Below, one piece after another: positions 3,591-62,371 of a DNA stretch of 64,000 nt; position 1 is the stretch's first letter, and the number at the start of each line of letters is the position of its first letter. This stretch comes from a virus. The translations under genes were made by a program, and so were the position numbers. The stretch spans positions 32,596 through 96,595 of IMG/VR virus record IMGVR_UViG_3300020000_000011; one strand, 5' to 3'. The notes beneath the pieces were generated by a model. It worked only from the letters and a program-made list of their open reading frames with translations, had not been told where the DNA came from and made no database searches.

Positions 3591-3649
3591 CTGCACACCC
3601 GATCTGGGTGACACGTTGCGATACTGGGATAGCGCGCTATACTAGAACC

Positions 3650-3925
3650 GTGACCGAGATGCTGACTTCCTCCCTCCTGGCCGGGGCCGACTTCGTGCCT
3701 GCTGGCACCGTGTTCTTGAACTGCGGCACGCTGGCCTCCCCGGCCACGATGGCCGCGGCCAACAACACGTGCGTGTGGTGCCACGAGTTGATGGTCGCCA
3801 AGGTCGGCGGTGGGCTGGTCGCCGGTGCGATGATCGGCCAACGGGCCTCGGCCTCCGACGAGTGGACCTGGTCCGGTCCGTTCTGCAAGGCATGTGATAA
3901 GGCGCACGGGCGGATGCTCGACTGA
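3650..3925 (+). CDS. Zn-finger-like hypothetical protein
   Basis: CVWC...CKAC; TATACT 6 nt before the GTG. Confidence 0.55.
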   Translation: MTEMLTSSLLAGADFVPAGTVFLNCGTLASPATMAAANNTCVWCHELMVAKVGGGLVAGAMIGQRASASDEWTWSGPFCKACDKAHGRMLD

Positions 3926-3942
3926 CCCGCTACCGTAGCGTG

Positions 3943-4215
3943 ATGGCAATCCGGCTGGTCCACACCCTGTGCGGCGACACGGCGTTCTTCTACGACGACA
4001 TGCTCGTGCCCGGCACCGCGATGCGCGCCGAGAAGGCGACGATGCCCGACGGCACCCACCCGATCAACGGGATGATGATGAAGTGCGGTTCGTGCGGTGA
4101 ACCGATCCCGACGTTCGACGGCACCGTGTTGGAACTGGAAGTCGACCCGACCACCGCCAAGCGCCTCGACGATCCCGTCGACTGGCCCGGCGAGTGGGAC
4201 GGACACGCTGGCTGA
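3943..4215 (+). CDS. Zn-ribbon-like hypothetical protein
   Basis: HTLCG...CGSCG; TACCGT 6 nt before the ATG. Confidence 0.6.
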   Translation: MAIRLVHTLCGDTAFFYDDMLVPGTAMRAEKATMPDGTHPINGMMMKCGSCGEPIPTFDGTVLELEVDPTTAKRLDDPVDWPGEWDGHAG

Positions 4216-4216
4216 G

Positions 4217-4287
4217 CAGCCCCAACGGGATTCGAACCCGTGTTTCCACCCTGAGAAAGTGGAGTCCTGCCGCTGAACGATGGGGCC
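4217..4287 (-). tRNA. tRNA-Glu(CTC), no encoded CCA
   Basis: Acceptor stem GGCCCCA/TGGGGCT; anticodon arm CCACT-TTCTCAG-GGTGG; T arm ACGGG-TTCGAAT-CCCGT. Confidence 0.9.
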
Positions 4288-4288
4288 G

Positions 4289-4364
4289 TGGAGCGGATGA
4301 CGGGAATCGAACCCGCGACCTCGACCTTGGCAAGGTCGCGCTCTGCCAACTGAGCCACATCCGC
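4289..4364 (-). tRNA. tRNA-Gly(GCC) with CCA
   Basis: GCGGATG...CATCCGC-T-CCA; anticodon arm CGACC-TTGCCAA-GGTCG; T loop TTCGATT. Confidence 0.95.
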
Positions 4365-4490
4365 TTGGTTGGCCCGGGCATCCCGGGTCGGTTGAGAGGT
4401 TTTGCAACCACCAACCAAGGACGCCGGACCGGCCACGACGATAGCCAGATCCGCTCCCGAAAGCACCGGCGCGTCTAACGTGTCGTACTC

Positions 4491-6439: not shown

Positions 6440-6476
6440 CGAGCGATTCGCAGAATCGTTCTGCAATTCGCTCGTT
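6438..6476. terminator. hairpin between convergent genes
   Basis: GACGAGCGA..GCAGAA-TCG-TTCTGC..TCGCTCGTT stem. Confidence 0.55.
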
Positions 6477-6604
6477 CACCCGTTGCTGATCGACACGACC
6501 CGCTGACGTAGGCCCGGCCGGTTCGGGCACCTGTTGGATCGGTGCCCGTTCTGCCCGCAGTACGAGCAGTCCCCAGCGTGGATCCAGATGTGGTACTCGA
6601 TCAT
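6476..6604 (-). CDS. small CCHC zinc-knuckle protein
   Basis: CSYCGQNGHRSNRC = C-x2-C-x4-H-x4-C; start uncertain. Confidence 0.55.
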   Translation of the reverse strand: MIEYHIWIHAGDCSYCGQNGHRSNRCPNRPGLRQRVVSISNG

Positions 6605-6656
6605 GTGATGTGGCCCGATGTCGGGAACCTCGTCGGGTCGAGTGTGTAGCGGCGCG

Positions 6657-6923: not shown

Positions 6924-7140
6924 GACTGTCTCCTGTTGGTTGAAGGTGCTGTCACGGATGCGACGGGCGTTCGCCAGGCCGACCTGTCCGAAGGGTATCA
7001 CCGTCCGATGCTTGCATCGGTGTAACTCGTGGTCTACTGTTCCGCCCCAGGAGCGACCCGACAGAGTCTGGTACCTCCCGCATCCTGACCTTCAGACCTC
7101 CGTCGCTATCCCGTTATACGGGAAGAGAAGGTGAATCGAA

Positions 7141-10211: not shown

Positions 10212-10268
10212 GTCTGGGGACTCGTATAGCGTGGTTGTGAAGTTGGGATACTGGGATATACTCGGGGC

Positions 10269-10709: not shown

Positions 10710-10811
10710 CCGTGTAACACCCCTGTGGTTGACTGATCCCGCTGGGACGTTGCCACATCCTGTACAACCCGCTATAGTTACTTCCAGACCCAGACAGAAA
10801 GACCCAGACCC

Positions 10812-11771: not shown

Positions 11772-11824
11772 CCCGACAGATACCCCGCTATACTCCACTC
11801 CAGACCCAGACGAAAGGCAACACC

Positions 11825-12436
11825 ATGACCAGCACACCAGTCCCCAACTCACCCGGCCCCACGATCGGCACCCTGATCCGAGGCGACGTCACGATCCACG
11901 CCCGCGACGGAGCAGCCAACACGCTGCTGCTCGACAAGCTGGCAGCGATCCCGCACTGCTCCGGCTTCGTCCAGAAGGCCCGCACCGGTGAAGGCACCGG
12001 CGTCGTCGGCCTGTACATGGAAGCGGTCGTGTTCACCGCCGCCGGGGCGCCGTTCGCCCACCTCCGGTTCTTCGTCATCGACCGCCACATCTACGTGTAC
12101 AACCGCTCGGCCGGTGACACCCGGGCCAACTGGCGGATCCGCACCGAGCAGTCGCTGGCCCACGCGCTGATGGTCGTCCACGAGGCGTTGAACCGCCCGA
12201 ACGTGCGCCTCTTCGGTCACCCTGTGGTGGTCGAGTTGACCGCCGACGACCTGTCCGCCGTCGAGTCCGGCGCGATGCCACCGGCCCGGTTCCGTGGCGC
12301 CTACCGGATCGAGCGCGACTTCGGCCGCTACGACTTCGTGATGGACGTCGTGTCGAAGCCGCTCCCGGCGAAGATGGAGAAGCTGCTGTCTGATCCGTCG
12401 TGGATCGTTCCGGCCGTCACGCCCGTCTCGGTGTAG
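11825..12436 (+). CDS. hypothetical protein in MoxR-VWA cassette
   Basis: RBS GAAAGG; own promoter cassette. Confidence 0.7.
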   Translation: MTSTPVPNSPGPTIGTLIRGDVTIHARDGAANTLLLDKLAAIPHCSGFVQKARTGEGTGVVGLYMEAVVFTAAGAPFAHLRFFVIDRHIYVYNRSAGDTRANWRIRTEQSLAHALMVVHEALNRPNVRLFGHPVVVELTADDLSAVESGAMPPARFRGAYRIERDFGRYDFVMDVVSKPLPAKMEKLLSDPSWIVPAVTPVSV

Positions 12437-12478
12437 AACCCGCTATACTGACTCCAGACCTAGACGAAAGCCGATCCG

Positions 12479-15286: not shown

Positions 15287-16273
15287 GTGCATGTAGCCAC
15301 GGTGCCGACGTACGAAGAGATGTGGGTCCATCCGGCGATCGTCGCCGCACTCTCCGACGGGATGTACACGTACACCCCGGCGCTGCCGTGGGATCCGCTC
15401 GTCACCTACGAAGTGGGTGAGCACGTGCTCGCCGGGGAGTGCCCGTTCGACGGCTGCATCTACACCGCGTTGCAGTCGAGCATCGGGATCGACCCGACCA
15501 CCAACGACGTCGTCTGGGACTTCAACGAAGCGTTGACCGGTGAACGGCTGCGCCTGTACACGGCAACGACGCAGGCCACATGGCTGCTCGACACGTTGAC
15601 CGGCTACCGCCTCCACGGCTACGAGTCCTGGCTGGAGGACTACCGGGTGCAGTCGTCGACGATCACGCTGCGCCGCCAACCCGTCGCAGCGGTCACCTCG
15701 GTCAAGTCGGTGCACCGCTGCAACCAGATCGGCGAAGAGATCTCCGGGTGGTGCTGGTCGGCAGCGAACCAGGTGTCGCTGGCCTGCTCCGGCGGGCAAC
15801 CGATCCCGTGGTACCCGGGGTATATCGACCCATACTACAGCGGGGGTACGATGCCGAGGCTCGGCTGCGGCTGCGACGACAACGTCGTGCGTGTCGCCTA
15901 CGACATCGAATCGAACCTCCCGCCGGGCAGCGAAGGACTGGTCGCCTGGATCGCCGTCGAGTACGGCAAAGCCGCCGCCGGACAGGCGTGCGCGCTGCCG
16001 GAACGCATCTCCAACGTCACCCGTCAAGGTGTCTCGTGGACGATCCTCGACCCGCAGGACTTCCTCGACAAGGGTTACACCGGGATGTCGCGAGTCGACA
16101 ACTGGTTGGCCCCACTGAAGATGACGTTGGGCGGCAGGATCATCGACCCGTTGCGCTCGACGCGCCTGTTCAGCCAACGCCAAGACCGCGCTCCCGCAGA
16201 GCCGATCCCACCACCGGCGTCCGGCTACGGCGCCAGCCCCTACGGCACCGGCCCCTACGGAGGATCCTCATGA
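15287..16273 (+). CDS. head-to-tail adaptor with CBM5/12-like insertion
   Basis: LPERISNVTRQGVSW...DFLDKGYTG..VDNWL; insertion WDPLVTYEVGEHV...YTAL...P...W. Confidence 0.7.
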   Translation: MHVATVPTYEEMWVHPAIVAALSDGMYTYTPALPWDPLVTYEVGEHVLAGECPFDGCIYTALQSSIGIDPTTNDVVWDFNEALTGERLRLYTATTQATWLLDTLTGYRLHGYESWLEDYRVQSSTITLRRQPVAAVTSVKSVHRCNQIGEEISGWCWSAANQVSLACSGGQPIPWYPGYIDPYYSGGTMPRLGCGCDDNVVRVAYDIESNLPPGSEGLVAWIAVEYGKAAAGQACALPERISNVTRQGVSWTILDPQDFLDKGYTGMSRVDNWLAPLKMTLGGRIIDPLRSTRLFSQRQDRAPAEPIPPPASGYGASPYGTGPYGGSS

Positions 16274-18089: not shown

Positions 18090-19613
18090 ATGACCACGAT
18101 CGCTCCTGACGTCGACATCGACGACATGAGCATCATCGAACAGATCGCGCTGCTCGACGACGACGAACGCGACCGGTTGATCGGCGACTTCGACGAGCAC
18201 GATCTCCACGACCCGGAACTGTGGCTCCGGCCGTCGCAGCTACGAGCACTGCATGACGTCGCTGCGATCGTGGCGATGCTCGCCGGGCGTGGCGCTGGCA
18301 AGACCCGTGTCGGTGCCTCGTGGTCGATCGAGAAAGCCGAAGCGGAACCCGGCTCGATCGGTCACCTCGTCGGGCGGACCGTGTCCGACTGTCGTGACGT
18401 CATGATCCAAGGCGAGTCGGGGATCCTCGCCCTGTCCCGGCCGGACTTCATGCCGACGTACACGCCGTCGCTGCGCCGGTTGGACTGGCCCAACGGCTCG
18501 CACGCGTTGACGTTCTCGTCGGAGGAACCGTCGCAGTTGCGTGGCCCGCAGTCGAACTGGACGTGGGTCGACGAGATGGCCGCGCTCAACCACCGGCCGG
18601 ACAACTCGGGGGCGACCGCCTGGGACCACGTCCGCATCGGTACCCGCCTCGGGCCGCACCCGCAGATCTTCGTGACGACGACACCGAAGCGGATCAAGGC
18701 GATCAAGGACCTCGTCGCTGAAGGCCGGACCACCCGGCGTGTGTCGCTGCACGGGGCCTCGACGTTGGCGAACCGGGCGCACCTGTCGGCCGACTACCTG
18801 CGGAACCTGTTCGACATGTACGCCGGGACCGCGCTGGAGCGCCAGGAGTTGGGTGGCGAACTGCTCGACATCGTCGAGACGGCCCTGTGGCAACCCGACG
18901 ACATTGTTATAGCGGACCATACCTTTCTGGAACGGTTCGTCGGAGTCGACACCCTGTCGGTGATCGGTGTTGACCCGGGCCTGACGACCGGCGGTGACGC
19001 CACCGGGATCGTCGTCACCCGCTCCACCCTGGAACTCGGGCTGACAACCCGGCGGGCGCTCGTCGTTGCCGACTGGACCGAAGACGGGCTGCAACCAGAA
19101 CGGTGGGCCGCTCGTGTCGTCGAGGCGTGGCGCACCGAACACGACCTGACCGGGAACGTGCCGATCATCGTCGCCGAGAAGAACGCCGGTGGCGAGATGA
19201 TCGCCACCACCATCGAAGGTGTCGCCGGAGAGAACGCGCTGCCGATCGCTCTCGTCCCGGCGTCACGTTCGAAGGCTGCTCGTGCCGAACCGATCGTGCT
19301 CGCCTACCGCCAAGGGCGCGTCCGCCACATCGAGGACTTCGTCGAGATGCAAGAGGAAATGACCGGCTGGGAACCACCGGTGCCCGGCGTGTCGAAAGGC
19401 TCCGGCTGGTCGCCGAACAAGATGGACGCGCTGGTCACGGCGTTGCGCGCCCAGCTTGTCGACGACAAGCCGTTGCGCCGGTTCGGCCGGTTGGACGCTC
19501 AGGAGACGTCCGAAGTGCTCCACGTCGAAGAGGCCCGCTGGCGTCGCGGCATCAAGCCGCTCGGGCACATGCCGTGGCGCCAAGAGGCAGAAGACATCGA
19601 CCCGCCGTACTGA
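18090..19613 (+). CDS. terL: terminase large subunit
   Basis: AGRGAGKT, LRGPQ..WVDE, TTTP, nuclease IGVDP...DATGIVV, AEKNAGG, SPNKMDAL. Confidence 0.95.
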   Translation: MTTIAPDVDIDDMSIIEQIALLDDDERDRLIGDFDEHDLHDPELWLRPSQLRALHDVAAIVAMLAGRGAGKTRVGASWSIEKAEAEPGSIGHLVGRTVSDCRDVMIQGESGILALSRPDFMPTYTPSLRRLDWPNGSHALTFSSEEPSQLRGPQSNWTWVDEMAALNHRPDNSGATAWDHVRIGTRLGPHPQIFVTTTPKRIKAIKDLVAEGRTTRRVSLHGASTLANRAHLSADYLRNLFDMYAGTALERQELGGELLDIVETALWQPDDIVIADHTFLERFVGVDTLSVIGVDPGLTTGGDATGIVVTRSTLELGLTTRRALVVADWTEDGLQPERWAARVVEAWRTEHDLTGNVPIIVAEKNAGGEMIATTIEGVAGENALPIALVPASRSKAARAEPIVLAYRQGRVRHIEDFVEMQEEMTGWEPPVPGVSKGSGWSPNKMDALVTALRAQLVDDKPLRRFGRLDAQETSEVLHVEEARWRRGIKPLGHMPWRQEAEDIDPPY

Positions 19614-21253: not shown

Positions 21254-21293
21254 GGTTGTGGCACCTACCGTACACGGTGCTATACTTCAGACC

Positions 21294-23353: not shown

Positions 23354-25200
23354 GCGACGTCGACCCGTGCATGACCGTTGACATCGGTGTCACCGCCGGG
23401 CCGACACCGGAGATCGCTGCTGTTGCGCGCCCCGCTGTCGGCGGGGTCATCGTCTCGACGATCGCCGCGCAACCAGTCGCCGCTGTCGTCGGTGGACGCA
23501 CCTCGACCCTCACCGCCATCCGCCCGGCCGTTCCCCAAGTCGGCGGCACGACCCGCCTCACCGCAGGCGTCACCGCGCCGACACCGTCAGTCGGCCACGT
23601 CGGCCTGATCGGCACCCCCGGCCCGCCAGGACCGCCAGGCCCCGAAGGCCCCGAAGGCCCGGCCGGTCCGCCAGGGTCCGGCGTCGCAATCATCGGCTCG
23701 ATCGAAGAAACCGATCCGCCGCCCGTCGACCCGTCGACCGGTGACATGTGGGTCCTCGGTGACCCTGTCCCGTCGTGGGCGCCACCATCGGCGACCGGTC
23801 CGGCGCAACCAGGCGACGGGATCGTGTGGGACGGCGACGAGTGGATCAACACCGGCCAGATCCAAGGCCCGTCAGGTCCGCCAGGCGAGTCGGGGCTGCT
23901 CCCGCAGTTCCACATCGACGGTGCCACAAGCTGGTTCACGGCCACCGAACCGGGGATGTACTCGACCGACAAGATCGTCCAGCCGACGGTCTTCGCTCCG
24001 CTGTACATCTACCCGAGCTACCTCGGATGGTGGGACCCGTACTACGCGAACCCTCCCGACTGGGGCGTCGTCAACGTCGCCGGTGGGCCGGGGACCGCAC
24101 CGAACTCCGACTACACGTTGGGGATCAACACCTTGCGTGGCCTCGGGTCGAAGCTGCTCGGCTACGTCGACACGAATTACGGGGCCGTGCTGCTGACGAC
24201 CGTGAAGGCCGACATCGACCTGTGGTTCTCGCTGTACAACGTCGACGGGATCTTCTTCGACCGGGTACCGACCGGGGCCTCGGCTCCCGAGATCACGTAC
24301 ATGGCCGACGCCGCGGCCTACGCGAAAGCGAAGCAGGCCGGGTGGAAGGTGGCGTTCAACCACGGCGACTATCCGATCGTCTCCGACTACGCCACGGTCG
24401 CCGACTTCTCGATCGTCTTCGAGAACACGTACACCGTGTACACGACGTTCGCTATACCAAGCTATGCGACATACGTGCCGGGGTTCCCGGCGTCGCAGTG
24501 GGTGCATCTCGTGCACGCCTGCCCCGACGAAACGAGCATGCGCGACGCCGCCGCTCGATGCACCGCCTTCGACGTCGCCAACTTCTACGCGACCGCCGAC
24601 GCCAACTTCGCCGAGATCCCGCCGTACTACTCGGCAGAGTTCGATCTCGCGACGGGGCAACAGGCGGCGCCGGATGCGCGCTGGTCGTCCGGCACGCTGA
24701 CCGTGTTCCAAGGTCTGAGCGACGACCTGATGCAGATGTGGATGGGTGACAACACGAACACCTGGTTCCGTGTCTACACCGCAGAGTTCAACGCGTGGTC
24801 GGCATGGACGACATCGGTGCGCCTCCCCTCCGAGGCCGGGCAGACGTTGGTGTCCGTCGACGACGGCTTCGGAGGGTTCACGTTCTACCCGGGGCCGTAC
24901 GTGTCCGGCGACGACGCGAACGAGGTGTTCATCGGACCCGACGACCCGGGCACCGACGTCGGATTCGAACTGTGGTACGACGTCGACGACGAGGGCACCG
25001 GCGCCGGACTCAGCTACGTCCACCACCAGACCCTGTTGACGACCGTGTGGACGATCGTTCACAACCTCGGCTGGTTCCCGAACGTGCTCGTGATCGACAG
25101 TGCCGGGGCCAACGTCGAAGGCGACATCACCCAGGTCGACCACAACTCGATGCGGATCCAGTTCAGCGCCTCTTTCACCGGGACCGCCTACCTCTCGTAA
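23350..25200 (+). CDS. fibre protein with collagen repeats and spherulin-4 (GH135)-like domain
   Basis: GPP repeats; PLYIYP...VVNVAGGPG...LLGYVDTNYG...YNVDGIFFD...FNHG...FEN; C-terminal WTIVHNLG domain. Confidence 0.75.
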   Translation: MSDVDPCMTVDIGVTAGPTPEIAAVARPAVGGVIVSTIAAQPVAAVVGGRTSTLTAIRPAVPQVGGTTRLTAGVTAPTPSVGHVGLIGTPGPPGPPGPEGPEGPAGPPGSGVAIIGSIEETDPPPVDPSTGDMWVLGDPVPSWAPPSATGPAQPGDGIVWDGDEWINTGQIQGPSGPPGESGLLPQFHIDGATSWFTATEPGMYSTDKIVQPTVFAPLYIYPSYLGWWDPYYANPPDWGVVNVAGGPGTAPNSDYTLGINTLRGLGSKLLGYVDTNYGAVLLTTVKADIDLWFSLYNVDGIFFDRVPTGASAPEITYMADAAAYAKAKQAGWKVAFNHGDYPIVSDYATVADFSIVFENTYTVYTTFAIPSYATYVPGFPASQWVHLVHACPDETSMRDAAARCTAFDVANFYATADANFAEIPPYYSAEFDLATGQQAAPDARWSSGTLTVFQGLSDDLMQMWMGDNTNTWFRVYTAEFNAWSAWTTSVRLPSEAGQTLVSVDDGFGGFTFYPGPYVSGDDANEVFIGPDDPGTDVGFELWYDVDDEGTGAGLSYVHHQTLLTTVWTIVHNLGWFPNVLVIDSAGANVEGDITQVDHNSMRIQFSASFTGTAYLS

Positions 25201-25212: not shown

Positions 25213-27030
25213 ATGGCACGCAACTTCCTCACCGCGATCAACCTCAACAAGAACGAGTTGCAGAACGCCGCGGTCCAGAACCTTGGTACGGCACCGCTGA
25301 CGCCGGTCAAGGGCCAGTTGTACTTCAACTCGACCGGTGGTGATAACACCCTATACTGGTGGGACGGTACGTCGTGGATCCCGGCCAAAGCGACGTCGAC
25401 GATCGCAATGGGACCAGTCGCAGCGGAGCAGACCTTCGGCAGCGCCTCGGCTGACGGTGTCGCTTCGACGGCGTCACGGTCCGATCACAAGCACGGCAAC
25501 CCGGCACACGACAACGCAGCCCACTCGGCGATCCCGCTGTACGCGTTGCAGAACCCGTTCGGCCCGTCGACGTCCGAGAAGGTGTTCGGCGCCGACGCCG
25601 CGAACGGTGTGTCGAACTCGGCGGCACGAGCCGATCATACCCACGGCAACCCGTACCACGACGGCCCCGCGCACGCCTCCGTCTCGCTCTCGGCGCTCGC
25701 CGCGCCGACCGCCGATCTCAGCATGGCCGGGTTCAAGATCACCAGCCTCGGCACACCGACCGCAGGGACCGACGCAGCCAACAAGGCGTACGTCGACAAC
25801 CTCGCCGCGGGTCTGATCTGGAAAGCGCCGGTGCGGTTGGCGAGTGCCCCTGCGACCAACTACGGGACACTGGCGGGGCTGATCGCAGTCGATGGCGTGA
25901 CTCCGGTTGCTGGTGACCGCATCCTGCTGAAGAGCCAATCGACGCCAGCGAACAACGGCATCTACATCGCAGCCGTCGGTGCATGGACTCGGGCGACTGA
26001 CGCCGACACCAGCGCCGAGTTGGTCGACGCCGCAGTGTTCGTCTCCGAAGGCACCGTCAACGCCGACACCGCATGGGTGCAGACAGCCAACGCACCGATC
26101 ACCATCGGCACGACAACGATCACTTGGGTCCAGTTCGTTGGCGGCGGCGCGGTCACCGCCGGTGCCGGTATGACCCAAGTGGGCAACCAACTCGACGTTG
26201 TTGCCGCCAACGGCTCGATCGTCGTCGGCCCCGACGACATCCAAGTCGGCTACCCCGGCACTGGTGGCGCCAACGGTTCGGCAGTCACCGCGGCGCGCTC
26301 CGACCACAACCACGACGCCACCTACGTCAACGTCACCGGCGACACGATGTCCGACACGCTGAACATCACCAAGAACCTCGGCATCGGCCTCGCCGCCAAC
26401 GCTTCGGCAGTTCAGGCAGCGACCTTCGTCGCCCTCAACGGAGGGCTGGACGGCAACAGCGTCAACCTTCACGGTTCCGGCGCGGCGTTGACGGTCGGCG
26501 GCTCGTTCTCGTCGGTGGACTTCTCCAACCTCGCCGACCAGGTGACGCTCCCGGCGTTCACCCCGGTCCAAAACAACCACGCGGCAACGAAGGCGTACGT
26601 CGATTCTCGCGACGGGGTGATCTCGACCGACGGCGACAAGGGCGACATCACCGTTGGCGGCACCGGCACCACGATGTCGATCGACGCTGCTGCGGTGACC
26701 AACGCCAAGTTGGCGAACATGGCTTCGCTGACGGTCAAGGGCAACAACGTTTCGGCGGGTCCTCCCCTTGATCTGTCGATGGCCCAACTCTCCAACATGC
26801 TCGCCGCGACGTTGGTCAAGAAGTACATCACCCAAGCCGGTGGGTCGACCACTCATGTCATCAACCACAACATGGGCGACAAGGCCGTGATGGTGCAGGT
26901 GTACTCCAACGTCGCACCGTACGACGAGATCGAATGCGACGTCGAACACACCGACATCAACAACGTCACGTTGCGCTTCGCTCCAGTGGCCCCGGCAGCC
27001 AACTCCCTCACGGTGATCGTCCACTACTGA
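25213..27030 (+). CDS. tail fibre protein
   Basis: SRSDHKH/ARADHTH repeats, [29 protein letters not shown]; C-terminal HNMG domain. Confidence 0.8.
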
Positions 27031-37643: not shown

Positions 37644-37987
37644 GGTACTTCACGCTGCCGGTCATCATCATCATCGGCCTGGTCGCCTACCGCCTCGCTC
37701 GGGTGCTGGCCCACGACAAGATCGGCGAACCGGTCCGCAAGTGGGCGTACAAGCAGTCGTGTGAGCACGGGCGCGCCGGGCGCTGGTTGAACGCCCTGAT
37801 CACCTGCCCATTCTGCCTTAGCGTATGGTTCGCTATAGCTGCGTCCGGTTGGTATGCGTGGATGGTCGCCCCCACCTGGCCCGGCTGGGGCGAGTTCCTC
37901 CTGGCCATCGCCGCCAGCGCCGGGATCGGTTCGTTCCTGTCGTCGGCTGATCTGGCCATGACCGTCTACGTCGAGGGCAACGAGTAA
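37640..37987 (+). CDS. DUF1360-like membrane protein
   Basis: YRLARVL..D.I.EPVR...LITCPFCLSVW. Confidence 0.75.
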   Translation: MRYFTLPVIIIIGLVAYRLARVLAHDKIGEPVRKWAYKQSCEHGRAGRWLNALITCPFCLSVWFAIAASGWYAWMVAPTWPGWGEFLLAIAASAGIGSFLSSADLAMTVYVEGNE

Positions 37988-39912: not shown

Positions 39913-40039
39913 CTTGTATACCCTAGTACGTCTGCTACGGTACCGACCGAGACAAAGACGCAGACCCGGACTCCGACGTAGACGAACCCAATGGTCCACC
40001 CAGAGATGGGGTCTACGTCGTGAACCCAGGAGCACCCAC

Positions 40040-40689: not shown

Positions 40690-43600
40690 ATGGCGCTCTC
40701 CGATGTCGGTACCGCCTATGTGATCATCAAGGCCAACACCGAACAGTTGGCCGGAGACATCGGCAAGGGGTTCAAGAAGGGCGCCGCCGACGCTGACGAC
40801 GACATCGCCAAGTCCGGTTCCGAGGGCGGCAAATCGTACAAGAAGGGGATGCTCGGCGAGATCGGCGACGGCGAGATCGGCGACGGTGTCACCGAGTCGT
40901 TGAACACCCCGGAGATCAACAAGAACTCCGAGAAGGCCGGGGCCAACGTCTCGCGTCGCGTCAAGAAGGGCCACGACAAGGAGAACAAGAAGCACAACCC
41001 GTTCGCGTCGCTCGGCGACTCGCTGGGTCAGGTGTTCTCGGGGATGGCCAAGCTGAAGTGGCCCGCGATTCTGCTCGCCGCCCCCGACGTTCTCGGCGGT
41101 CTGGCCAACATCATCGGGGCGTCGCTGGCCGGGATCACCGAAGCCCTCGGGTTCCTCGTCGAAGCCGCCGCCGGTGCCGGTGCCGCACTGGTCGGGATCG
41201 GTGTCGTGGCGATCCCTGCGCTCGCCGTCCTGTTCGCCGCGTTCAAGGTCAGCACCGACGAACTCGACTCATTCAAGGAAGCCGCCAAGCCGCTCATCGG
41301 CCAGTGGAAGAACGTTGCCGTCGCGGTGCAGAAGAAGGTCCTCCCGGCGATGCTCGGGTTCCTCGAAACCAGCCAACTGCTGATCCCGATGTGGGTCGAG
41401 TTCGGTGACCACATCGGCACGATCGCAGGCAACTTCCTGACGATGGCCGGGAACGTGCTGACGTCGAACAAGAACCTCGACGCCTTCGCGACGATCATGG
41501 AGAACAGCGAGAAGTTCTTCGGTCTGATCTCCGAATCGCTGCTCGTCGTCTTCGATGCGTTGATCCCGGTGTTCGCCATCCTCGCGCCGCTCGGCGTGCA
41601 GTTCGCCGAGTCGCTCCGCAAGATGGCCGACCACCTCGCCGAGTTCCTCGCGCAACCCGGCAAGCTCGACGAACTGTCGGTCAAGTTCCAAGACTGGTAC
41701 GACAAACTCGCGCAGGTCTTTCGGATCATCGGCAACGTGTTCACCGCGCTGTGGGAGATCCTCGGTGTCGGCGCCGAGTTCGGCACGAGCATGTTCGATT
41801 CGTTGGAGAAGGTCACCGGCAAGTGGGCCGAGTGGACCCAGTCGATCGAGGGGCAGACCGCGTTGCAGGACTGGTTCGCCAAGTCGCAACCGTTGATGCA
41901 CGAGATCTGGTTGCTGATCAAGGACATCGCCGACATCGTCATCGGGCCGATCATCGACGTCGATTCGCAGCAGGGGACCATCGACTTCGTCCACACACTC
42001 CGCACCGACTGGTTGCCGACCTTCAAGGACATCTTCGACGCGTTGGGTAACGCCGGTGTCGGTGAGGCCCTTCAGACACTCGCCGACGCCCTCGTCGACT
42101 TCATCAACTCGTTCTCAGGGTCGTCGACGATCGTGGCGACCATCGACACCTTCGCCAAGGTCATCGAGGGCTTCGCCAAGGTGTTGTCGGACCCGTTGGT
42201 GGCCGAGGTCGCGCCGACGTTGGCGGCGATCTACGGCGGACTCGCGGTGTTCAAGTTCCTCAAACTCGACAACCTCGCCAAGGACGTCTTCGCCGTCGGC
42301 AGCGGGTTCCTCAACCTTGGCAAGGGTCTGTTCGCGACAGGTGAAGGGGTCGCTGCTGCGAAAGCGGCCGGTGGGCTGCAATCGCTCGGTGCGACGCTCG
42401 CTCCGATCGCCGGGCCGCTGCTGGCCGTCGCCGCGGCGATCGCAGCGATCTGGGCCGTGTGGCACTTCTGGGACGAGATCATGGCCGGGCTGAAGACTGC
42501 GTGGGAATGGTTCACGAAACTGTCGACGCCGATCCAGATCCTCGTCGGGATCCTCGCCGGGATGACGGCGATCATCATGGCCCCGCTGCTCGGGTTCATC
42601 GGGCTGATCTTCGGTGTCATCGCAGTGTTCAAGAACTGGGAAGCGATCGCCGGGTTCGTCGACCGAGTATGGGACGCTATATTCAACTTCTTCACGGGAC
42701 TGCCCGACCTGATCGGCAAGCTGCCCGGGTTGCTCGGCGGGGTCGGTCTGTCGATCCTCAACTTCTTCGAAGGGGTCGGCGAGTCGATCCTCGGGTTCCT
42801 CGGTCGCCTGCCAGGGATCATCGGTGGCGCCCTGCTCGGAGCGTTGACGGCAATCCCCGGTCTGGTGATGGACGCGCTCTCCGGGCTGGCCAACGTCGGG
42901 TTGGGGATCCTCCAGTGGATCGCCGACGGCATCGTCACCGCCGCGCCGGTCGTCGCCCAGTTCTTCACCGAGCTACCGATCAAGATCCTCGGCTGGGTCG
43001 GTCAGGCGTTCTCGGCGCTCACCGGCCTCGGCACGAACATCTTGCAGTGGATCATCGAGGGCCTCGTCGAATGGTTGCCGAAGGTCCTCGTGTTCTTCAT
43101 CAAGATGCCGTTCGAAATCCTCACCCTGCTCCGCAAGGCCAACGTCGAGATGGTCAAGATCGGCTGGCGGATCCTGATGTGGATGATCGACGGGCTGGTC
43201 GAAGCGTGGCCGTCGATTCTCGACTTCTTCAAGAAGCTGCCGCGCCGGATCATCGACGCCTTGGAAGCCGCCGGGAAGTTCCTGCTGTCGGTCGGCAGGT
43301 CGATCATCGACGGGATGTGGCAAGGCATCCAGACGGCGTGGGACATCGGCCTCGACTTCTTCAAGAAACTGCCACGACGGATCCTCGACGCGTTGATCAA
43401 CTCGGCCATGTGGCTGCGTGATGTCGGCAGCGGGATCATCAACGGGATGTGGCAGGGCATCCAGTCGTCGTGGGATGCCGGGCTGGAGTTCTTCACCGGG
43501 CTACCGGCGCGGATCATGGGCTACTTCACGTCGACGATCGACTGGCTGAAGCAGGTCGGCGGCGACCTGATCCAAGGACTATGGAACGGTATACAAGAGG

Positions 43601-44577: not shown

Positions 44578-45593
44578 CCTATCCGGCGAACTGGCCCACC
44601 CCGGGCAAGATGCACTTCCGGTTGACCGAACCGCGCCTCGGCCAGTTGGATCTCGACTGCGACGCCGGGTACGTCGTGTCGTCCTACGACCTCGGGTTCC
44701 CGGCCGTGCGCGAGGTGTCGGTACCGAACTCGCTCGACGACGGCACGTACGACATCTCGCACTTCTACGGGGCGCGCAGCATCACGCTCGATGTGATCGT
44801 GAAGCCGCACACCGGCCTCGACTCGACGTCGTCGCCGACTGCTGCTGAAGCGGTGCTGCGTGACCGGCTGCTGGCCTACATGTACCCGGGTGTGCGACCG
44901 ACGCTGATCTTCTCCGAGCACCAGGACGCTCGGGTCAAGCAGGTGATGTTGCGTGGCGCGCAAGGGTCGGTGGCGGTCAGCCGACGGAACTACAACAAGA
45001 TCAGCGCCTCGTGGGTCGCGCCGCGTGGTGCGCTGCTGTCGTGGGATCCGCAGTGCTACGCGTACATGTTCTCGTCGAACACCGCCGACACCCAGTCCCA
45101 GACGATCCACAACAACGGGTCCGCTCCGGCGCACTGGCAGGCGACACTGGTCGGTGAGTCGATCAAACCGCGGTTCATCCTCAACGGTCAACAGGTGCTG
45201 CAACTCGACTACGAGACGTCGGTCGGTGACACGATCGTCATCGACTCGTTCTCGCGGACCGTGACGATCGACGGTGTGCAAACCGGCTACAAGTACGTCG
45301 GTGGCAACGCCTCTTGGGCGCAGGTCCCGCCGGGCGCCTCGACGTTGACGATCGAGCAGGACACGTACACGGTCGAGGGGTACCCGTTCGCCTACTGGCA
45401 GCCGACCGCGCCGATCGTTCCGAACCCGGCGAAGACACCGACGAACTGGGCGACGCCGCCGGGAACGACTCCGCCGAACAACCCGCCTCCTGGTGGTAAG
45501 CCGCCGTGGGCGTGGACCACGAGGATCGACCCGAGCACCGGGGAGCCGGGCCGGTTGGATATCAACTTCTGCTTCTACGACACATTCGTATGA
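44574..45593 (+). CDS. distal tail (Dit)-like minor tail protein
   Basis: Follows TMP; DLGFP.VRE...DDG..D...YGAR.ITL; NNGSAP; IVID...RTV. Confidence 0.75.
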   Translation: MTYPANWPTPGKMHFRLTEPRLGQLDLDCDAGYVVSSYDLGFPAVREVSVPNSLDDGTYDISHFYGARSITLDVIVKPHTGLDSTSSPTAAEAVLRDRLLAYMYPGVRPTLIFSEHQDARVKQVMLRGAQGSVAVSRRNYNKISASWVAPRGALLSWDPQCYAYMFSSNTADTQSQTIHNNGSAPAHWQATLVGESIKPRFILNGQQVLQLDYETSVGDTIVIDSFSRTVTIDGVQTGYKYVGGNASWAQVPPGASTLTIEQDTYTVEGYPFAYWQPTAPIVPNPAKTPTNWATPPGTTPPNNPPPGGKPPWAWTTRIDPSTGEPGRLDINFCFYDTFV

Positions 45594-45606
45594 TCGGGTA
45601 TATCTC

Positions 45607-49557: not shown

Positions 49558-50086
49558 CAGGTGCCTGCTTTCTGGGTCTGGGTCACGGAGCACAGTATAA
49601 CTGGCTACACTCGGAAACTTTCTTTCCCAGATCGTTTACATCGGCCGGTCGAACGTCGCTTCGTAGAAGTGTGAACGAAGACATGCAACTACTCAGGTCC
49701 TTGCCGATGCCAACCCAGAAGGCGCTGCTGCGCGACTGGGTCGAACGGAGGCGGCTCGGGACGCTCCGCGGTGAGGGCCTCGCCTCCCACGCCGGGTACA
49801 TCAACATGATCGCCCAAGAGCAGGGGGTCACCATCGACGAGATCCTGGCGCTCGACTGGTACCCCGTCTGATCCCGACCAGGCGTCGACGATGTCCTCAT
49901 CGCTCTCTTCGCCGTCGCCGTAGTCGTAGCCGTGGGCGCGCCACCACTCGACCAGATCGAAGACCATGCCGTAGGTGACGAGCGGCAACCAGAACAGGAT
50001 CGTCACCGACCGTTGGATCCCGTTGCCGTCCAATGCCCATGCGAAGCCGATCCCGGCCCACAGGTAGATGATGACCAGCGCGACGA

Positions 50087-50383: not shown

Positions 50384-50730
50384 GTTGATACTCCTTTGTG
50401 CTCTCCTGGGTCTGGATTACTCGTGGGCAGTTGCTCCCACGACTCGTAGCGTAACCCCGCTATACGGGCTTGCGCGGGATGGGTCGTGACGTGCTCATGG
50501 TGTGCTCTACACAGTGCTATACAGTTGTCGGGGTCGAGGTGGCCACCGGGGCGTACCCCGCGGGACTGAAGTTCATGTACGTCGATCGGACCGGCGCATC
50601 GGATCCCGAACGCGCCCGGGGCTGAGCAGCGGTACATCGCCCGGCGCAACGCAATCTCACGGACCACGTTGCGTTCATCGCGTTCGGCCAGCCGCTTGTC
50701 ACTCACCGGTCGGAGGCGCGAACGCTTCAC
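50380..50730 (-). CDS. HNH-like nuclease
   Basis: YRC...C...DVHE..SR...N..ALCRAHH. Confidence 0.65.
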   Translation of the reverse strand: MKRSRLRPVSDKRLAERDERNVVREIALRRAMYRCSAPGAFGIRCAGPIDVHELQSRGVRPGGHLDPDNCIALCRAHHEHVTTHPAQARIAGLRYESWEQLPTSNPDPGEHKGVST

Positions 50731-51013: not shown

Positions 51014-51185
51014 CGAGTGGTCCGCCGGTGATCGTGACGTATCCGCAATCGCTGCATTCTGCAATGGTCCCTTCGTCGGGGAAGCGCGTGTCGGCAGGAA
51101 CAGTGAACAGGATCATCGTCCCCGTGCATTCGTTCGGTGCGGCCATGCACGTATGTATACCCGACTACGGGGGAAATCATGTGCG

Positions 51186-54924: not shown

Positions 54925-55021
54925 CCGGCGACTATAACCCGGTACGCGAAAGAGCGCCGGGTGGTTCACGGTCCACCCGGCGCTCTTTCATGCTGTTCCG
55001 TCCCGAACAGCGATCTGTTGG

Positions 55022-58916: not shown

Positions 58917-58960
58917 CCAGGCACGTTGTCATTCCGCAGATACCGTGGTATACTGTTGTC

Positions 58961-59469: not shown

Positions 59470-59678
59470 ACACCACTCTCACCGGCCCACAGCAAGCACT
59501 GCTGGAACGAGTCCGCAGCGAAGGCACCGTCGTCCAGAACGGCCGTGCCCGGCGCACCGTTCAAGCACTCGTCGACCGCGGCCTCGTCGTCTCCGAGTAC
59601 GACCTGATCCCCCATGCCATCGGATCGTGGACCGAAAGATTCACACTCACGTTGGCTCCCAACGATAGCGAGGTATAG
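59466..59678 (+). CDS. small winged-helix-like protein
   Basis: LTGPQQALL...RTVQALVDRGLV. Confidence 0.55.
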   Translation: MNTTLTGPQQALLERVRSEGTVVQNGRARRTVQALVDRGLVVSEYDLIPHAIGSWTERFTLTLAPNDSEV

Positions 59679-59686
59679 TTACCGCC

Positions 59687-59863
59687 ATGACACAGACACC
59701 AGACACAGACAAGACCTACAAGATCATCCGGTTCTACCAAGACGCCGACTCCGAGATCATCACCCGCGGCCAAACGCTGGCACAGGCCCAAGCGCACTGC
59801 CAACGTGAGGACACCCACGGCGAAGGCTGGTTCGACGGCTACGACGTGGACGAGCAGTCATGA
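59687..59863 (+). CDS. small conserved phage protein
   Basis: YKIIRFY...G.TL.QAQAHC...WFDGY; leaderless TATAGT. Confidence 0.6.
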   Translation: MTQTPDTDKTYKIIRFYQDADSEIITRGQTLAQAQAHCQREDTHGEGWFDGYDVDEQS

Positions 59864-60405
59864 GAGTCAACCGAGTCCAACGAGCGACCGGCTCGACGAA
59901 GCGCCCGTGGCGCGACCCGAAGTGCATGAAGTGCCGCAAGGAAATCTTGAAGGGCGAGCCGTACCAGTGGGCGCAAGGCTTCCACGGTCCGAAGATGATC
60001 ATCTGCGGGACGTGCGTGTTCTCCCGCTCCGACCTGACCAACTCCAAGCTGGCGCAGGTCTACGAAGCGTTCGACGGCGCCTACGACGAACTGGCCGAAG
60101 CCGACGAGTCCACCGACTTGCAGTCGATCCTCGACTCGCTCGTTGCCTCCGTGCAAGAGGTCGCCGACGAGTACCGCTCCGCAGCCGACGAATACTTCTC
60201 CGGTGGCGGACCGAACGCCGAGAAGGCCGACGAAGTCGAATCGTGTGTCGACGAACTCGACTCGATCGACGTTCCCGAACTCGTGTCGTTCGAACAGCAC
60301 TGCATCGACGCCGAGGAAGAACAGTCCGAGCGACAGTGGCGCGACTGGATCCAAGAACAGATCGACACCTTCCGCGGTGACATCGAGAACGCCGACTCGC
60401 TATGA
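59860..60405 (+). CDS. Zn-finger plus acidic coiled-coil protein
   Basis: CMKC..I.KGE.Y...C..C; acidic helical C-terminus. Confidence 0.65.
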   Translation: MRVNRVQRATGSTKRPWRDPKCMKCRKEILKGEPYQWAQGFHGPKMIICGTCVFSRSDLTNSKLAQVYEAFDGAYDELAEADESTDLQSILDSLVASVQEVADEYRSAADEYFSGGGPNAEKADEVESCVDELDSIDVPELVSFEQHCIDAEEEQSERQWRDWIQEQIDTFRGDIENADSL

Positions 60406-60553
60406 CGTACCGATCCATCATGGTCCTCGTCGAGATCGACGACACCGTCTCCCAAGGCGACGAGTTCGAAACGCTGATGGCCGACGTCCAGAACTGCGTC
60501 GAGATGTTCCACGACCCGGCCATCAAGCGGACCAAGGTCACGGAGATCACGTC

Positions 60554-60838
60554 ATGAGGTGCGCGTACTCAGCGATCGACGACTCGATCGTGCTGACCTA
60601 CTCCAACCTCGACGACGGCGTGTGGCTGGAATGCGCCTGCGGCTGGACGACCAACCTCGGCTTCCGCGCCACCCCGCAGAAAGCGATGGAGGAAGTCGCA
60701 GCACACAAGGCGACGACCGCAGCCGATCAGATCTTGGAGATCGTCGCCGAGTTGTACGACTCTCCCGACAACGACCGCTACGGCTCGATCGTCGACCGGC
60801 TGATCGCCGCCGAAGACATCCGGCGGGCGACGTCATGA
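60554..60838 (+). CDS. hypothetical protein
   Basis: ATGA coupling; CACGW. Confidence 0.5.
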   Translation: MRCAYSAIDDSIVLTYSNLDDGVWLECACGWTTNLGFRATPQKAMEEVAAHKATTAADQILEIVAELYDSPDNDRYGSIVDRLIAAEDIRRATS

Positions 60839-61086
60839 GAGCGGCAACGCTCACCACCGCGAAGCGTGTCGCTGCGGCAACCGGGCAGACGTTCCTGTTC
60901 GGCATCCGCGCCAGTGGCAGCGTGTTCGTGCACTGCGACGGCATCGAAGTCGACGGCAACTGGGACGGCTCCGTCCCGGCGCTCGCCACCGAGATCTCGC
61001 AACGCCTGCTCTCCGAACGTAGCAAAGCAACCCAGGCGGTCACCGCGGCCGACAAGAAACTGCGCGTGCTGGACGGTGCGGAATGA
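60835..61086 (+). CDS. hypothetical protein
   Basis: ATGA coupling. Confidence 0.5.
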   Translation: MRAATLTTAKRVAAATGQTFLFGIRASGSVFVHCDGIEVDGNWDGSVPALATEISQRLLSERSKATQAVTAADKKLRVLDGAE

Positions 61087-62162
61087 CGACCGTGTCGCTC
61101 CCCGAGTGCCGCGGCCCACGCGACCTTCCCGAGGTCCGCGCCTGGCTCGCCAACCTGTACCGCCCCGAGTCGCGCTACACCGCAGCGATCGAACGAGGCG
61201 GACTGTCGACCGACTCCCGGTTCATCCGCGAGACACTGAACACCGCCCAACTGTGGTGGGTCACGAAAGAGACATGCGATCTGCTCGCCGCCTCCGCCCC
61301 GTCGATCCCCGACGACGTCGTCATGGACTGGAAAGACGTCCCGGTCCCGGCCGGGTTCGCCGTGTTCGACGAAGACCTGACCGGTTCCGATTCGTACACG
61401 GCCGGTGAACCGGTGCGTGTCTCGGCGATCATGTGGGGACCGGTCGAACTCCCACCGATCGGCGGCATGCGCCTCCCGCTCCCCGGCGGCAAGGTGCTCG
61501 CCGACAAACCGGGCCGCATCGGCCTCGGCATCGGGATGTGGACACGCGCCGATCTCGGTCAAGGGATCAACGGGAAAGAGATGGCGATCCACGCCGGGAC
61601 GTTCTCCGCGCTCGCCGACCACATGCCCCTGTTGTCCACCGGGACGCCCGGCTCAACTCACGTCATCAAGGGCAGCCTGTTCACCTACATCGGGCGGACC
61701 GACTGGCTCGACGGCCGACCGATCAACGAAGTCACCCCCGGCGCACCTCTCGGTAGCTACAACGCCCAGCAGTCGATGACCGAGGACCGCAAGCTGATCA
61801 CCGCCCTGTGGGCGATCACCCGCACCCCGATCGTCTCCCTCGTCCAAGAACACGTCCACCGGTCCACCGCCCGCCGCGCCAAGCGCAAGGGATTCGATCC
61901 TGCGGTGCGTGTGTTGACGCTCCACGGCCCGCGCCTCGACCAGGGTACCACCGAGGCCCACGGCACCGGCACGAGGGACTGGCAGCATTCCTGGGTCGTG
62001 TCGCCGCACTGGCGGTGGCAGCCGTTCGGCCCCGGCCGCACCCAACGCCGCCTGATCCTGATCGGCGCCTACAAGAAAGGCCCCGACGACAAACCGTTGC
62101 TCGGCGGCGAACGAGTCTGGCGTGTCGTCCCTCCGCACGGCGCACCGACGGTGGCGCAATGA
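61083..62162 (+). CDS. conserved phage hypothetical protein
   Basis: C-terminal WVVSPHWRWQPFGPGR..RRLI.I..Y.KGP motif. Confidence 0.7.
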   Translation: MTTVSLPECRGPRDLPEVRAWLANLYRPESRYTAAIERGGLSTDSRFIRETLNTAQLWWVTKETCDLLAASAPSIPDDVVMDWKDVPVPAGFAVFDEDLTGSDSYTAGEPVRVSAIMWGPVELPPIGGMRLPLPGGKVLADKPGRIGLGIGMWTRADLGQGINGKEMAIHAGTFSALADHMPLLSTGTPGSTHVIKGSLFTYIGRTDWLDGRPINEVTPGAPLGSYNAQQSMTEDRKLITALWAITRTPIVSLVQEHVHRSTARRAKRKGFDPAVRVLTLHGPRLDQGTTEAHGTGTRDWQHSWVVSPHWRWQPFGPGRTQRRLILIGAYKKGPDDKPLLGGERVWRVVPPHGAPTVAQ

Positions 62163-62371
62163 CCCCGCTGTTCGCCCTCCTGTACATCGCACTGGCCGTC
62201 ACGTTCGGTGGCTGGTGGTGGCTCGCTGCCGTGCTGATGACGATCGCGTGGGTCGGCGGCAAGATCGCCGACATCCGTCTCGCCTACTGGCAGGAACGCC
62301 TCCGCGAGGTTTCCTCTGATACTCCGATATACTCGCCCCAAGACCCAGACCAAGAAAGTTAGGAACCAACC

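Follow-up and report, generated by a model that had tools for sequence, protein, structure and literature searches.

Most of the TATA words in a 96.6-kb viral contig from an uncultured soil phage belong to a single bipartite DNA motif, whose skeleton is a purine-TA, a gap of six or eight bases (N6 or N8) and G-N-TATA-C. This motif is two tandem TATA-like boxes placed one helical turn (10 bp) apart on the same face of the helix, and it is found both in the promoters of the phage and within its coding sequences. In the likeliest reading, to which we give a little less than an even chance, the motif would be recognized by one sequence-specific DNA-binding protein whose sites overlap promoters and also occur, as extra copies, within genes. 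The window, that is the whole stretch of DNA analysed here, is the right 64 kb of the contig (96,595 bp, 65.6 % G+C, ~85 % complete, 127 ORFs). Neither the phage nor its host has been cultured.

In the window, 24 of 29 TATA words have a TA exactly six or eight nucleotides away on one side, where 1.4 would be expected (Poisson p ~1e-21), and over the whole contig 34 of 41 do so, where 1.9 would be expected (p ~3e-30), with 19 copies of the N6 and 15 of the N8 spacing. The other spacings from 0 to 25 occur in zero to five cases each, with about one expected, and the TATA word itself is present ten times over its second-order expectation (41 versus 4.2). When synonymous codons were shuffled within genes (300 shuffles), 0.7 +/- 0.8 intragenic copies were obtained compared with the 16 observed. 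A sequence-only reading of this DNA had proposed the motif, together with a TATA count and a codon-shuffle comparison as checks; the motif is real and very strong by both, and all 26 sites listed in that reading carry the letters and positions it gave. Two of them, at 56061 and 56105, had been counted as N6 copies but have no TATA and form a separate pair of palindromes. TA steps do have a period of three in coding DNA, which could suggest that base composition, codon usage or recurring protein motifs produce the pattern. This explanation is refuted by the expected counts and the codon shuffles, by the fact that the genes holding the copies are unrelated and that reading frame and strand vary among the copies, and by the same N6/N8 enrichment in an independent relative (G001, the 71 % relative; 13 of 18 TATA words), and its probability is negligible.

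The skeleton and both spacings are common to promoter and non-promoter copies. Among the 34 copies, G occupies the second position before TATA in 32, a purine precedes the upstream TA in 31, and C directly follows TATA in 24. The distance between ATA words on the same strand has a single peak at 10 bp; this genome has 21 such cases where 0.26 would be expected, and G001 has 7 where 0.07 would be. The perfect box reads G-N-TATA-C, while a single TA is left of the other box, the first in N8 copies and the second in N6 copies, and the gap reads as six or eight bases because the imperfect box has kept just one of two TA steps. The half-sites lack the dyad symmetry of a palindromic HTH-dimer operator, the repeat being direct and not inverted. 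The N6 class had been described as pseudo-palindromic, but beyond the TA steps its inner complementarity is 0.32 compared with ~0.26 by chance.

About half of the copies are the cores of sigma-70/SigA-type promoters for genes that are leaderless or have an AGAC leader, which contradicts the earlier view that most copies are not TANNNT promoters. TATA(C/G)T is present in 15-16 copies, of which 8 or 9 have a TTGnnn -35 at 16-17 nt; this agrees with the sigma-70/SigA type, for which a TANNNT -10 and, in most cases, a TTGnnn -35 at 16-18 nt are expected. An independent promoter-consensus scan of positions 3000-22000 recovered four of these copies versus 1.4 in shuffles. An ATG or GTG lies exactly 6-7 nt past the hexamer in 9 copies, an arrangement that would fit leaderless mRNAs. 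Examples with a predicted leaderless start are the N6 copies at 3629..3643 (+; -35 TTGCGA, 16-nt spacer, GTG at 3650), 58940..58954 (+; -35 TTGTCA, 17-nt spacer, ATG at 58961), 10248..10262 (+; ATG at 10269, the start of a 146-aa HTH-like protein), 59665..59679 (+; ATG at 59687) and 54931..54945 (-; leftward, ATG at 54924), and the N8 copy at 21270..21286 (+; ATG at 21294). AGAC leaders follow the N6 copies at 11780..11794 (+; upstream of the gene at 11825), 62319..62333 (+; upstream of the gene at 62372) and 49594..49608 (-; leftward, upstream of the ERF recombinase gene 48913-49557), and the N8 copies at 10762..10778 (+; an AGAC repeat, upstream of the AAA ATPase gene at 10812) and 12433..12449 (+; upstream of the 651-aa gene at 12479). 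Almost all sigma-70-type promoters of the phage contain the motif, and copies occur without distinction in cargo, head, tail and early genes, so the suggestion that it marks the late region is not sustained.

The promoters of T7, SP6 and K11 also read TA, eight bases, TATA. This formal likeness to the N8 skeleton is the one argument for regarding the copies as promoters of a phage single-subunit RNA polymerase, which we consider very improbable. The start codons lie 6-7 nt past the hexamer, in the sigma-70-type arrangement, and not directly after TATA; the D-x-D-G-D motif is absent from all ORFs; and the intragenic copies have no sense bias. A T7-type polymerase (PF00940) had no match in the ~85 % complete contig or in four relatives (one 95 % complete), which is a weak negative as the control genomes contain no such gene.

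The register of the motif relative to the -10 hexamer is not fixed. In most promoter copies the perfect box starts at base 1 of the hexamer, and it starts 2 nt upstream of it at position 3887 of the genome, at 50518 of the window and at 3689 of G001; in the intergenic N8 copy at 50507..50523 (+), a possible promoter, a TANNNT hexamer begins at the third base of TATA. The N6 copy at 39915..39929 (-) is in a divergent intergenic region and overlaps a leftward leaderless promoter, whose hexamer TAGGGT falls within the motif and precedes the ATG at 39912 by 7 nt; the perfect box is downstream of that hexamer. Within this genome the upstream TA lies 8, 10 or 12 nt from the hexamer start. These shifts favour a separate, operator-like DNA-binding factor over contacts made by RNA polymerase itself.

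The 18 non-promoter copies have no -35, and a T at the last -10 position (-7) does not characterize this half, being found in 1 of 18 with a further 2-3 rescued by a hexamer in the +2 register. Intergenic examples are the N6 copies at 7106..7120 (+), which sits within a 13-bp palindrome (7110-7122) about 20 nt before the capsid gene ATG at 7141 and has neither a -35 nor a T at -7, and at 51154..51168 (-; intergenic region 50971-51186), which has no recognisable promoter. The N8 copy at 45588..45604 (+) covers the stop codon ending gene 44574-45593 as well as the junction ahead of the gene at 45607. Thirteen copies are fully intragenic, six sense and seven antisense (with the ambiguous copy at 25343 included), and this balance is still even when copies are oriented as direct repeats. 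Sense copies include the N8 copies at 37823..37839 (+; GTATGG type, small membrane-protein gene 37640-37987) and at 42667..42683 (+; GTATGG type) and 43579..43595 (+), both in the tape-measure gene, as well as the N6 copy at 25343..25357 (+) in the fibre gene 25213-27030, which has a good -10 hexamer and no -35, leader or start codon. Antisense copies include those of the N8, GTATGG type at 15819..15835 (-; gene 15302-16273) and 18906..18922 (-; large terminase gene), the N8 copy at 31908..31924 (-; gene 31058-32092) and the N6 copy at 24451..24465 (-; gene 23350-25200). Promoter features are absent around most of the intragenic copies.

These distributions bear on an explanation that we regard as unlikely, in which the motif is intrinsic to promoters: the RNA polymerase holoenzyme of the host, with or without a general cofactor, would read G-N-TATA-C as an extended -10 and prefer a flexible TA step near -20, and the intragenic copies would be weak or cryptic polymerase sites or internal or antisense promoters. 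The perfect box with its G at -2 resembles an extended -10 element, so RNA polymerase itself could be the binder, and the geometry to the start codon is that of the textbook. In the more distant relatives, whose hosts are probably different, the upstream TA has a fixed distance of another length (N10 in G002, N7 in phage DSL-LC01), which also fits a polymerase preference that differs by host, and the GTATGG-type half is found in true promoters of relatives. However, the variable position of the upstream TA and the register shift are not easily explained by a polymerase whose position is fixed at -10, the 18 non-promoter copies lack the -35 and the -7 T needed for the open complex although at least some are under selection, and no sense bias is seen among the intragenic copies.

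The case for such selection comes from codon usage and from relatives. The intragenic copies were expected to use rare codons, and this was confirmed: ATA makes up 1.2 % of Ile, GTA 1.5 % of Val and TAT 3.4 % of Tyr codons, and 9 of the 16 ATA codons in the genome fall in motif copies. The copy at 37823, with rare codons GTA, GCT, ATA and GCT, is an identical 19-mer in L001, L004 and L005, three lineages that keep these codons while differing at ~30-40 % of other synonymous codons; it is absent from L002 and L006, and relatives without it have common codons at that place. L014, at ~90 % nucleotide identity, keeps two of the three intragenic copies that its sequence covers. The copy at 15819..15835 is unchanged there although both flanks have changed, the copy at 18906..18922 has one change with every TA step kept, and the copy at 24451..24465 is not conserved. 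Such a comparison of synonymous sites in relatives had been proposed in the sequence-only reading. The intragenic copies are also lineage-specific: they are missing at homologous places in the 71 % relative (where common codons stand in place of the 18906..18922 copy) and in L002, and one has been lost in L014. Promoter copies turn over in spacing, and orthologous promoters swap N8 and N6 with the TA kept (window 10762 versus G001 4340; window 21270 versus L014). At 21270..21286 the 17-mer is identical in G001, and L014 has an N6 version with 7 changes within 11 nt, the rest of the promoter being identical. Judged from these sequence comparisons, at least some non-promoter copies are held by selection at the DNA level.

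Another improbable account is that two unrelated things share the TATA word, namely a promoter family with a conserved spacer feature and a separate 15-mer within genes (GTATGG-N2-CG-N-TATA) used in DNA modification, site-specific nicking, priming, packaging or recombination. The intragenic N8 copies do have their own extra T, G and G after the upstream TA (7-9 of 11), which N8 promoter copies lack; they are confined to the closest clade and occur on either strand of structural and cargo genes, at intervals of 1-6 kb. Against this, the two spacings are identical in both sets, which also share the G at -2 and the C that follows TATA, and no methyltransferase or nickase family was matched in a general scan of ~50 of the 127 ORFs in the ~85 % complete contig. 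The GTATGG-type half, intragenic in this genome, also lies inside working-looking leaderless promoters of G001 (34113) and L001, which points to one element and not two.

The reading of the motif as the site of one DNA-binding protein overlapping -10 boxes fits the shared skeleton, the resistance of intragenic copies to synonymous change and the geometry that is kept while the register shifts. In the mechanism that we propose, the binder would touch two successive turns of DNA, and the perfect box would double as, or overlap, the host sigma-70/SigA-type -10 hexamer in about half of the copies. Once bound at a promoter copy, the protein would occupy about -22 to -9, in competition with RNA polymerase, and would in this way control all of the promoters as one group, for example in a shut-off or for immunity. 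Those copies in coding DNA that lack a promoter would provide the protein with additional sites, serving as roadblocks, cooperative anchors or a protein sink. The earlier proposal of spread protein-binding sites that occlude promoters thus keeps its binding component, with which skeleton, register and conservation are consistent, and loses its late-region component. Several features weigh against a single binder: a rigid dimer would not usually tolerate two spacings, the intragenic copies are lineage-specific, the upstream TA has other distances in more distant relatives, and G-N-TATA-C looks like an extended -10 element. The putative binder is more likely than not encoded by the phage, and HTH proteins are the natural candidates. 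Pfam scans of ~40 proteins identified only generic HTH proteins, of XRE type (2325-2564), HTH_36 (complement of 53704-54468) and, weakly, MerR-like (complement of 50087-50383), and a lead-level HTH signal is present in 10269-10709. Protein binding, the identity of the binder and the direction of regulation are points that we infer from these patterns.

The closest analogue appears to be the stoperator system of Cluster A mycobacteriophages, as the sequence-only reading had noted while recognizing a different motif, although features that define that system are absent here. In both cases, more than 20 copies of one short asymmetric, bipartite site are distributed over a high-G+C actinophage genome, with some overlapping promoters (the early promoter in Cluster A) and the rest elsewhere. 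Cluster A operators and stoperators, bound by the L5 gp71-type repressor, are 13-14-bp asymmetric, bipartite sites recognized by two DNA-binding modules; stoperators work in a single orientation, which correlates with the direction of transcription, and the non-promoter sites lie in short intergenic gaps (PMC9283540). The present motif (purine-TA, N6 or N8, G-N-TATA-C) does not match the Cluster A 13-mer (PMC9283540), allows two spacings, and occurs in nearly all promoters instead of one or two. Its 13 non-promoter copies within coding sequence are not in short intergenic gaps and, at six sense and seven antisense, show no correlation of orientation with transcription. No two-domain repressor of the gp71 type was identified, the Pfam scans of ~40 proteins having given only generic HTH domains, and no sign of a temperate lifestyle was seen.

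Sites for lambda CII are 4-bp direct repeats of 10-bp period (TTGC, six bases, TTGC) that straddle the -35 and activate weak promoters. The motif resembles these in being a short direct repeat of 10-bp period built into promoters, some CII sites being intragenic and antisense as well, but it occupies -22 to -9 in promoters that are strong to begin with, and most of its intragenic copies have no promoter features nearby. The phiC31 repressor binds conserved inverted repeats. That system likewise has many repressor-site copies tied to repeated promoters in an actinophage, but its sites are palindromes whereas the repeat here is tandem. Extended -10 (G-N-TANNNT) promoters are described for leaderless genes in Actinobacteria (PMC3898074), and the promoter copies share with them the G at -14, the TANNNT and a start codon 6-7 nt downstream, while differing in the extra TA one turn upstream and in the existence of promoter-less intragenic copies.

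We propose, with more reserve, that in this soil actinophage lineage one factor reads two TATA-like boxes, with a site in essentially every host-type promoter and rare-codon copies within genes on either strand. This would be an orientation-free operator network distinct from stoperators and tuned among close relatives by the gain and loss of copies and by N6/N8 swaps. Should one factor read all copies, this would be a second, independently evolved case of genome-wide phage control by a single short site, differing from mycobacteriophage stoperators in its tandem boxes, two registers and lack of polarity. It would also be a plain case of regulatory DNA overriding codon choice, because more than half of the ATA codons in the genome would exist for the motif. 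The promoter copies provide a compact, strong and leaderless promoter family for high-G+C hosts, and TATA with a TA at N6 or N8 offers a simple signature by which soil metagenomes could be searched for this phage lineage and for its regulatory sites.

TATA words are rare in this DNA. The window has 29 and the whole contig 41, the latter figure being ten times above second-order expectation (41 versus 4.2). Thirty-four of the 41 have a TA on one side at a distance of exactly 6 nt in 19 cases and 8 nt in 15, and each of the other TA-TATA spacings from 0 to 25 accounts for 0-5 cases, with about one expected. On a Poisson model the pairing occurs 24 times in the window against 1.4 expected (p ~1e-21) and 34 times in the contig against 1.9 expected (p ~3e-30). 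All 26 sites listed in an earlier sequence-only reading, which had proposed a protein-binding motif written into structural genes with rare codons, read as it stated. Under the codon-preserving shuffle that it had proposed as a check, 16 intragenic copies are observed versus 0.7 +/- 0.8, and the maximum in 300 shuffles is four. ATA makes up 1.2 % of isoleucine codons, and nine of the 16 ATA codons of the contig fall inside copies, which also use the rare codons GTA (1.5 % of valine codons) and TAT (3.4 % of tyrosine codons). On the statistics, the shuffles and the codon usage, the observation therefore stands, rare-codon remark included; its interpretation is partly supported. The element is real, highly non-random and a feature of the DNA level, and chance or coding artefacts, whose probability as the source of the pattern is negligible, are excluded.

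The element consists of two tandem TATA-like boxes, one turn apart, of which one is perfect. Distances from ATA to ATA on one strand peak at one value alone, exactly 10 bp, with 21 such pairs in the contig (0.26 expected), 15 in the window (0.22 expected) and seven in the metagenome relative G001 (0.07 expected). Every pair includes one TATA; in the other 13 copies one ATA is replaced by GTAC, which is self-complementary, by GTAG or by a similar word. Of the imperfect box just one TA is left: the first in copies read as N8, the second in those read as N6. This is why spacings of 6 and 8 but never 7 are found. Three extra letters are common to all copy classes: a G two bases before TATA (32 of 34 copies, p ~2e-14), a C directly after it (24 of 34) and a purine before the upstream TA (31 of 34). 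The N6 class had been called pseudo-palindromic, a description that fails beyond the TA steps themselves, and a palindromic operator was dropped on this ground. Regular spacing of the copies along the genome, or a clean switch in their polarity, was judged by eye and likewise dropped.

Sixteen copies contain TATA(C/G)T, and 15 of these resemble host promoters of the sigma-70/SigA type, most with TTGnnn at 16-17 nt and often with ACG before it. Downstream of the promoter copies there is either an ATG or GTG exactly 6-7 nt past the hexamer, a leaderless arrangement, or an AGAC-repeat leader. An independent consensus scan of positions 3000-22000 recovers four promoter copies. In two or three more cases an intergenic copy overlaps a promoter with its register shifted: the hexamer begins at the third TATA base at genome position 3887 and window position 50518, and at 39915-39929 it lies within the motif, with a leaderless ATG 7 nt further on. 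Promoters of T7-type polymerases likewise read TA, eight bases and TATA, and the motif might be taken for a set of these; such an origin is very unlikely, as no gene for such a polymerase was seen in the contig (~85 % complete) or in four relatives, and the start-codon geometry matches sigma-70-type initiation.

The divergent region between the genes at 55022-55921 (- strand) and 56254-58254 (+ strand) holds an 18-bp perfect palindrome (56058-56075) and a related imperfect one (56103-56118), 44 bp apart, whose half-site GATACC recurs as the upstream box in a number of N6 promoter copies. Both palindromes are without TATA and therefore have the appearance of a classical operator pair. A motif copy also lies in a 13-bp palindrome at 7110-7122. 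This palindrome is downstream of a candidate promoter with its hexamer at 7035 and precedes the capsid gene's ribosome-binding site, and its transcript is predicted to fold into a small hairpin just 5' of the capsid start. A cassette at 10269-14434 comprises four genes, every one with a strong promoter copy of its own; the products are an HTH-like protein, a CobS/MoxR-like AAA ATPase and two proteins of 203 and 651 aa. Its last three genes are conserved in G001 and in the more distant relative G002, and a similar setting in the lake phage DSL-LC01 holds an ATPase and 'cobalamin biosynthesis' pair.

In the ~15 remaining copies both the -35 element and the T that ends the hexamer are absent. Thirteen of them lie wholly within genes, six sense and seven antisense, and the genes that hold them include those for the terminase, the tape measure, fibres, a small membrane protein and the large cargo proteins encoded left of the window. 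Eleven promoter-less N8 copies form a GTATGG subgroup, in which T, G and G follow the upstream TA in 7-9 copies. A CII-type promoter was considered for the intragenic copies and dropped; neither conserved flanks nor a fixed nearby -10 surround them. Despite the codon bias of the genome the promoter-less copies are retained, a further point in favour of a separate binding factor.

The contig that carries the motif is a single viral sequence of 96,595 bp with 65.6 % G+C, of which the window covers bases 32,596-96,595; it is classed as linear and ~85 % complete, and both the phage and its host are uncultured. The nearest catalogued phages, actinophages of Microbacterium, Arthrobacter and Gordonia together with one lake metagenome phage, share only 33-37 % portal identity, and 37 % marks the closest relative in the phage collection searched. 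Near-identical DNA is present in many soil and sediment metagenomes. The window encodes the capsid protein (7180-9132), the large terminase (18090-19613), the portal (37998-39611) and a tape measure of 1295 aa. A fibre-gene array of ~14 kb (within 23000-37300) is absent from G001, where the terminase block is ~7 kb from the portal block. Four fibre genes in a row carry the over-represented 10-mer TTGTGGTACG close to their start (27192, 27968, 29290 and 30477), where it specifies a repeated E-L-W-Y-D-T-D peptide; it was dropped as a part of the motif, the repeat being one of protein level and unrelated.

Metagenomes contain relatives whose portals are 71-80 % identical, and the comparison around the portal gene draws on fragments, the metagenome scan having returned contigs of 1-3.5 kb only. 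Three portal relatives of 75-80 % (P0009, P0022 and P0042) are on contigs of 98-104 kb. Nothing further turned up when viral contigs were searched with an exact 19-mer, the tape measure and proteins encoded next to it, or when genome contigs were scanned. The codons GTA, TGG, TTC, GCT, ATA and GCT contain the copy at 37823, and a 19-letter stretch there is identical in relatives L001 (98 % portal identity) and L004 and L005 (78 %); in the rest of the gene, 31-43 % of conserved-residue codons differ among these lineages. At the same place L002 and L006 have no motif, different residues and common codons. In L014, which is ~90 % identical in nucleotides over 10 kb, the copy at 15819-15835 is kept exactly with both flanks changed, that at 18906-18922 is kept with one change that spares every TA, and that at 24451-24465 is lost. 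A further relative of 79 % (L003:1-620) lacks the small membrane-protein gene and the rest of the genes upstream of the portal, and in their place carries an ORF with an HNH-endonuclease-like motif.

G001, the 55.8-kb contig of L006 (71 % portal identity), is syntenic from the capsid gene to ~62 kb. Its TATA words number 18 versus 1.3 expected, and 13 of these have a TA at N6 or N8; almost all of the 13 are promoters, and the places homologous to the intragenic copies have no motif. Spacing class changes between orthologous promoters: the N8 copy at 10762 is N6 at G001 4340, and that at 21270 is N6 in L014 (6560-6620), with seven substitutions within 11 nt (compared at 21258-21290) in a 90-bp stretch of promoter and leader that is otherwise unchanged. 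The switch has the look of gene conversion, or of a cassette swap, with another promoter copy as the source. The upstream TA is at N10 in G002 (45 % portal identity) and at N7 in DSL-LC01 (37 %), whose repeated promoters parallel the promoter family of this contig. At 18000-44000 DSL-LC01 repeats a 26-bp promoter ~30 times in near-identical form; it combines an extended -10 with a TA 7 nt farther upstream, a 6-bp inverted repeat flanks it, and every copy is followed by a conserved GAAAGGA-type leader. The 128-kb relative G003 (42 %) has a repeated signal different from the TATA motif, a conserved word of 15-20 bp containing TATAGGGGAT in 15 copies at 1100-9400 and 19070, every 0.3-1.7 kb; a T7-type polymerase searched for in its record gave no match.

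The best reading of the motif, which we hold tentatively, is that a separate DNA-binding factor would recognize it. One sequence reader is the economical assumption because promoter and promoter-less copies share the skeleton and both spacings. Two unrelated motifs, one a promoter feature and the other an intragenic mark that serves modification, nicking or priming, would suit the extra letters and narrow phyletic range of the GTATGG subgroup, and are nonetheless unlikely given the spacings and letters common to both populations. The GTATGG-type half, moreover, is intragenic only in this contig yet lies inside leaderless promoters of G001 (34113) and L001, and the two populations are therefore linked. 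An intrinsic feature of the polymerase, in the form of an extended -10 with a flexible step in the spacer, accounts for the promoter half and for host-like differences between distant relatives, but we consider it similarly improbable, as it leaves unexplained both the register shifts and the selected copies without T at -7. Within the motif the 10-bp geometry is constant, while the position of the motif against the -10 hexamer and the start codon shifts by -2, 0 or more; orthologous promoters retain a TA while the rest of the spacer turns over or switches class. For a polymerase anchored on the hexamer a fixed TA position would be expected, unlike the switching seen, which favours the separate factor. 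A protein on a promoter copy would cover about -22 to -9, and repression by occlusion would therefore be the simplest mechanism; activation is possible instead.

Candidate binders are an XRE-type protein of 79 aa (2325-2564), a MerR-like protein of 98 aa (50087-50383, complement), an HTH_36 protein (53704-54468, complement) and a 146-aa protein with a basic N-terminal tail encoded behind a promoter copy (10269-10709), whose resemblance to HTH_23 or sigma region 4 is at lead level only. All except the XRE-type protein are conserved in G001. Of ~50 proteins scanned against Pfam and PHROG most had no match, and the contig, at ~85 % completeness, gave no match to the T7-type polymerase, sigma-70 region 2, HU/IHF, WhiB or Lsr2 families. 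No D-x-D-G-D motif was found in the ORFs, and the sole RGRP motif is at the end of a membrane-like 56-aa ORF.

Among known systems, the CII sites of phage lambda have a 10-bp direct-repeat geometry and occur inside genes, both of which this motif shares, but they sit at -35 and activate. The closest known system is the operator/stoperator network of Cluster A mycobacteriophages, in which more than 20 copies of an asymmetric 13-mer site are read by a two-domain monomer and lie in promoters and short intergenic gaps, active in one orientation only (PMC9283540). The likeness is one of outline; the motif differs from that network in sequence, polarity and location and is therefore not a member of the stoperators.
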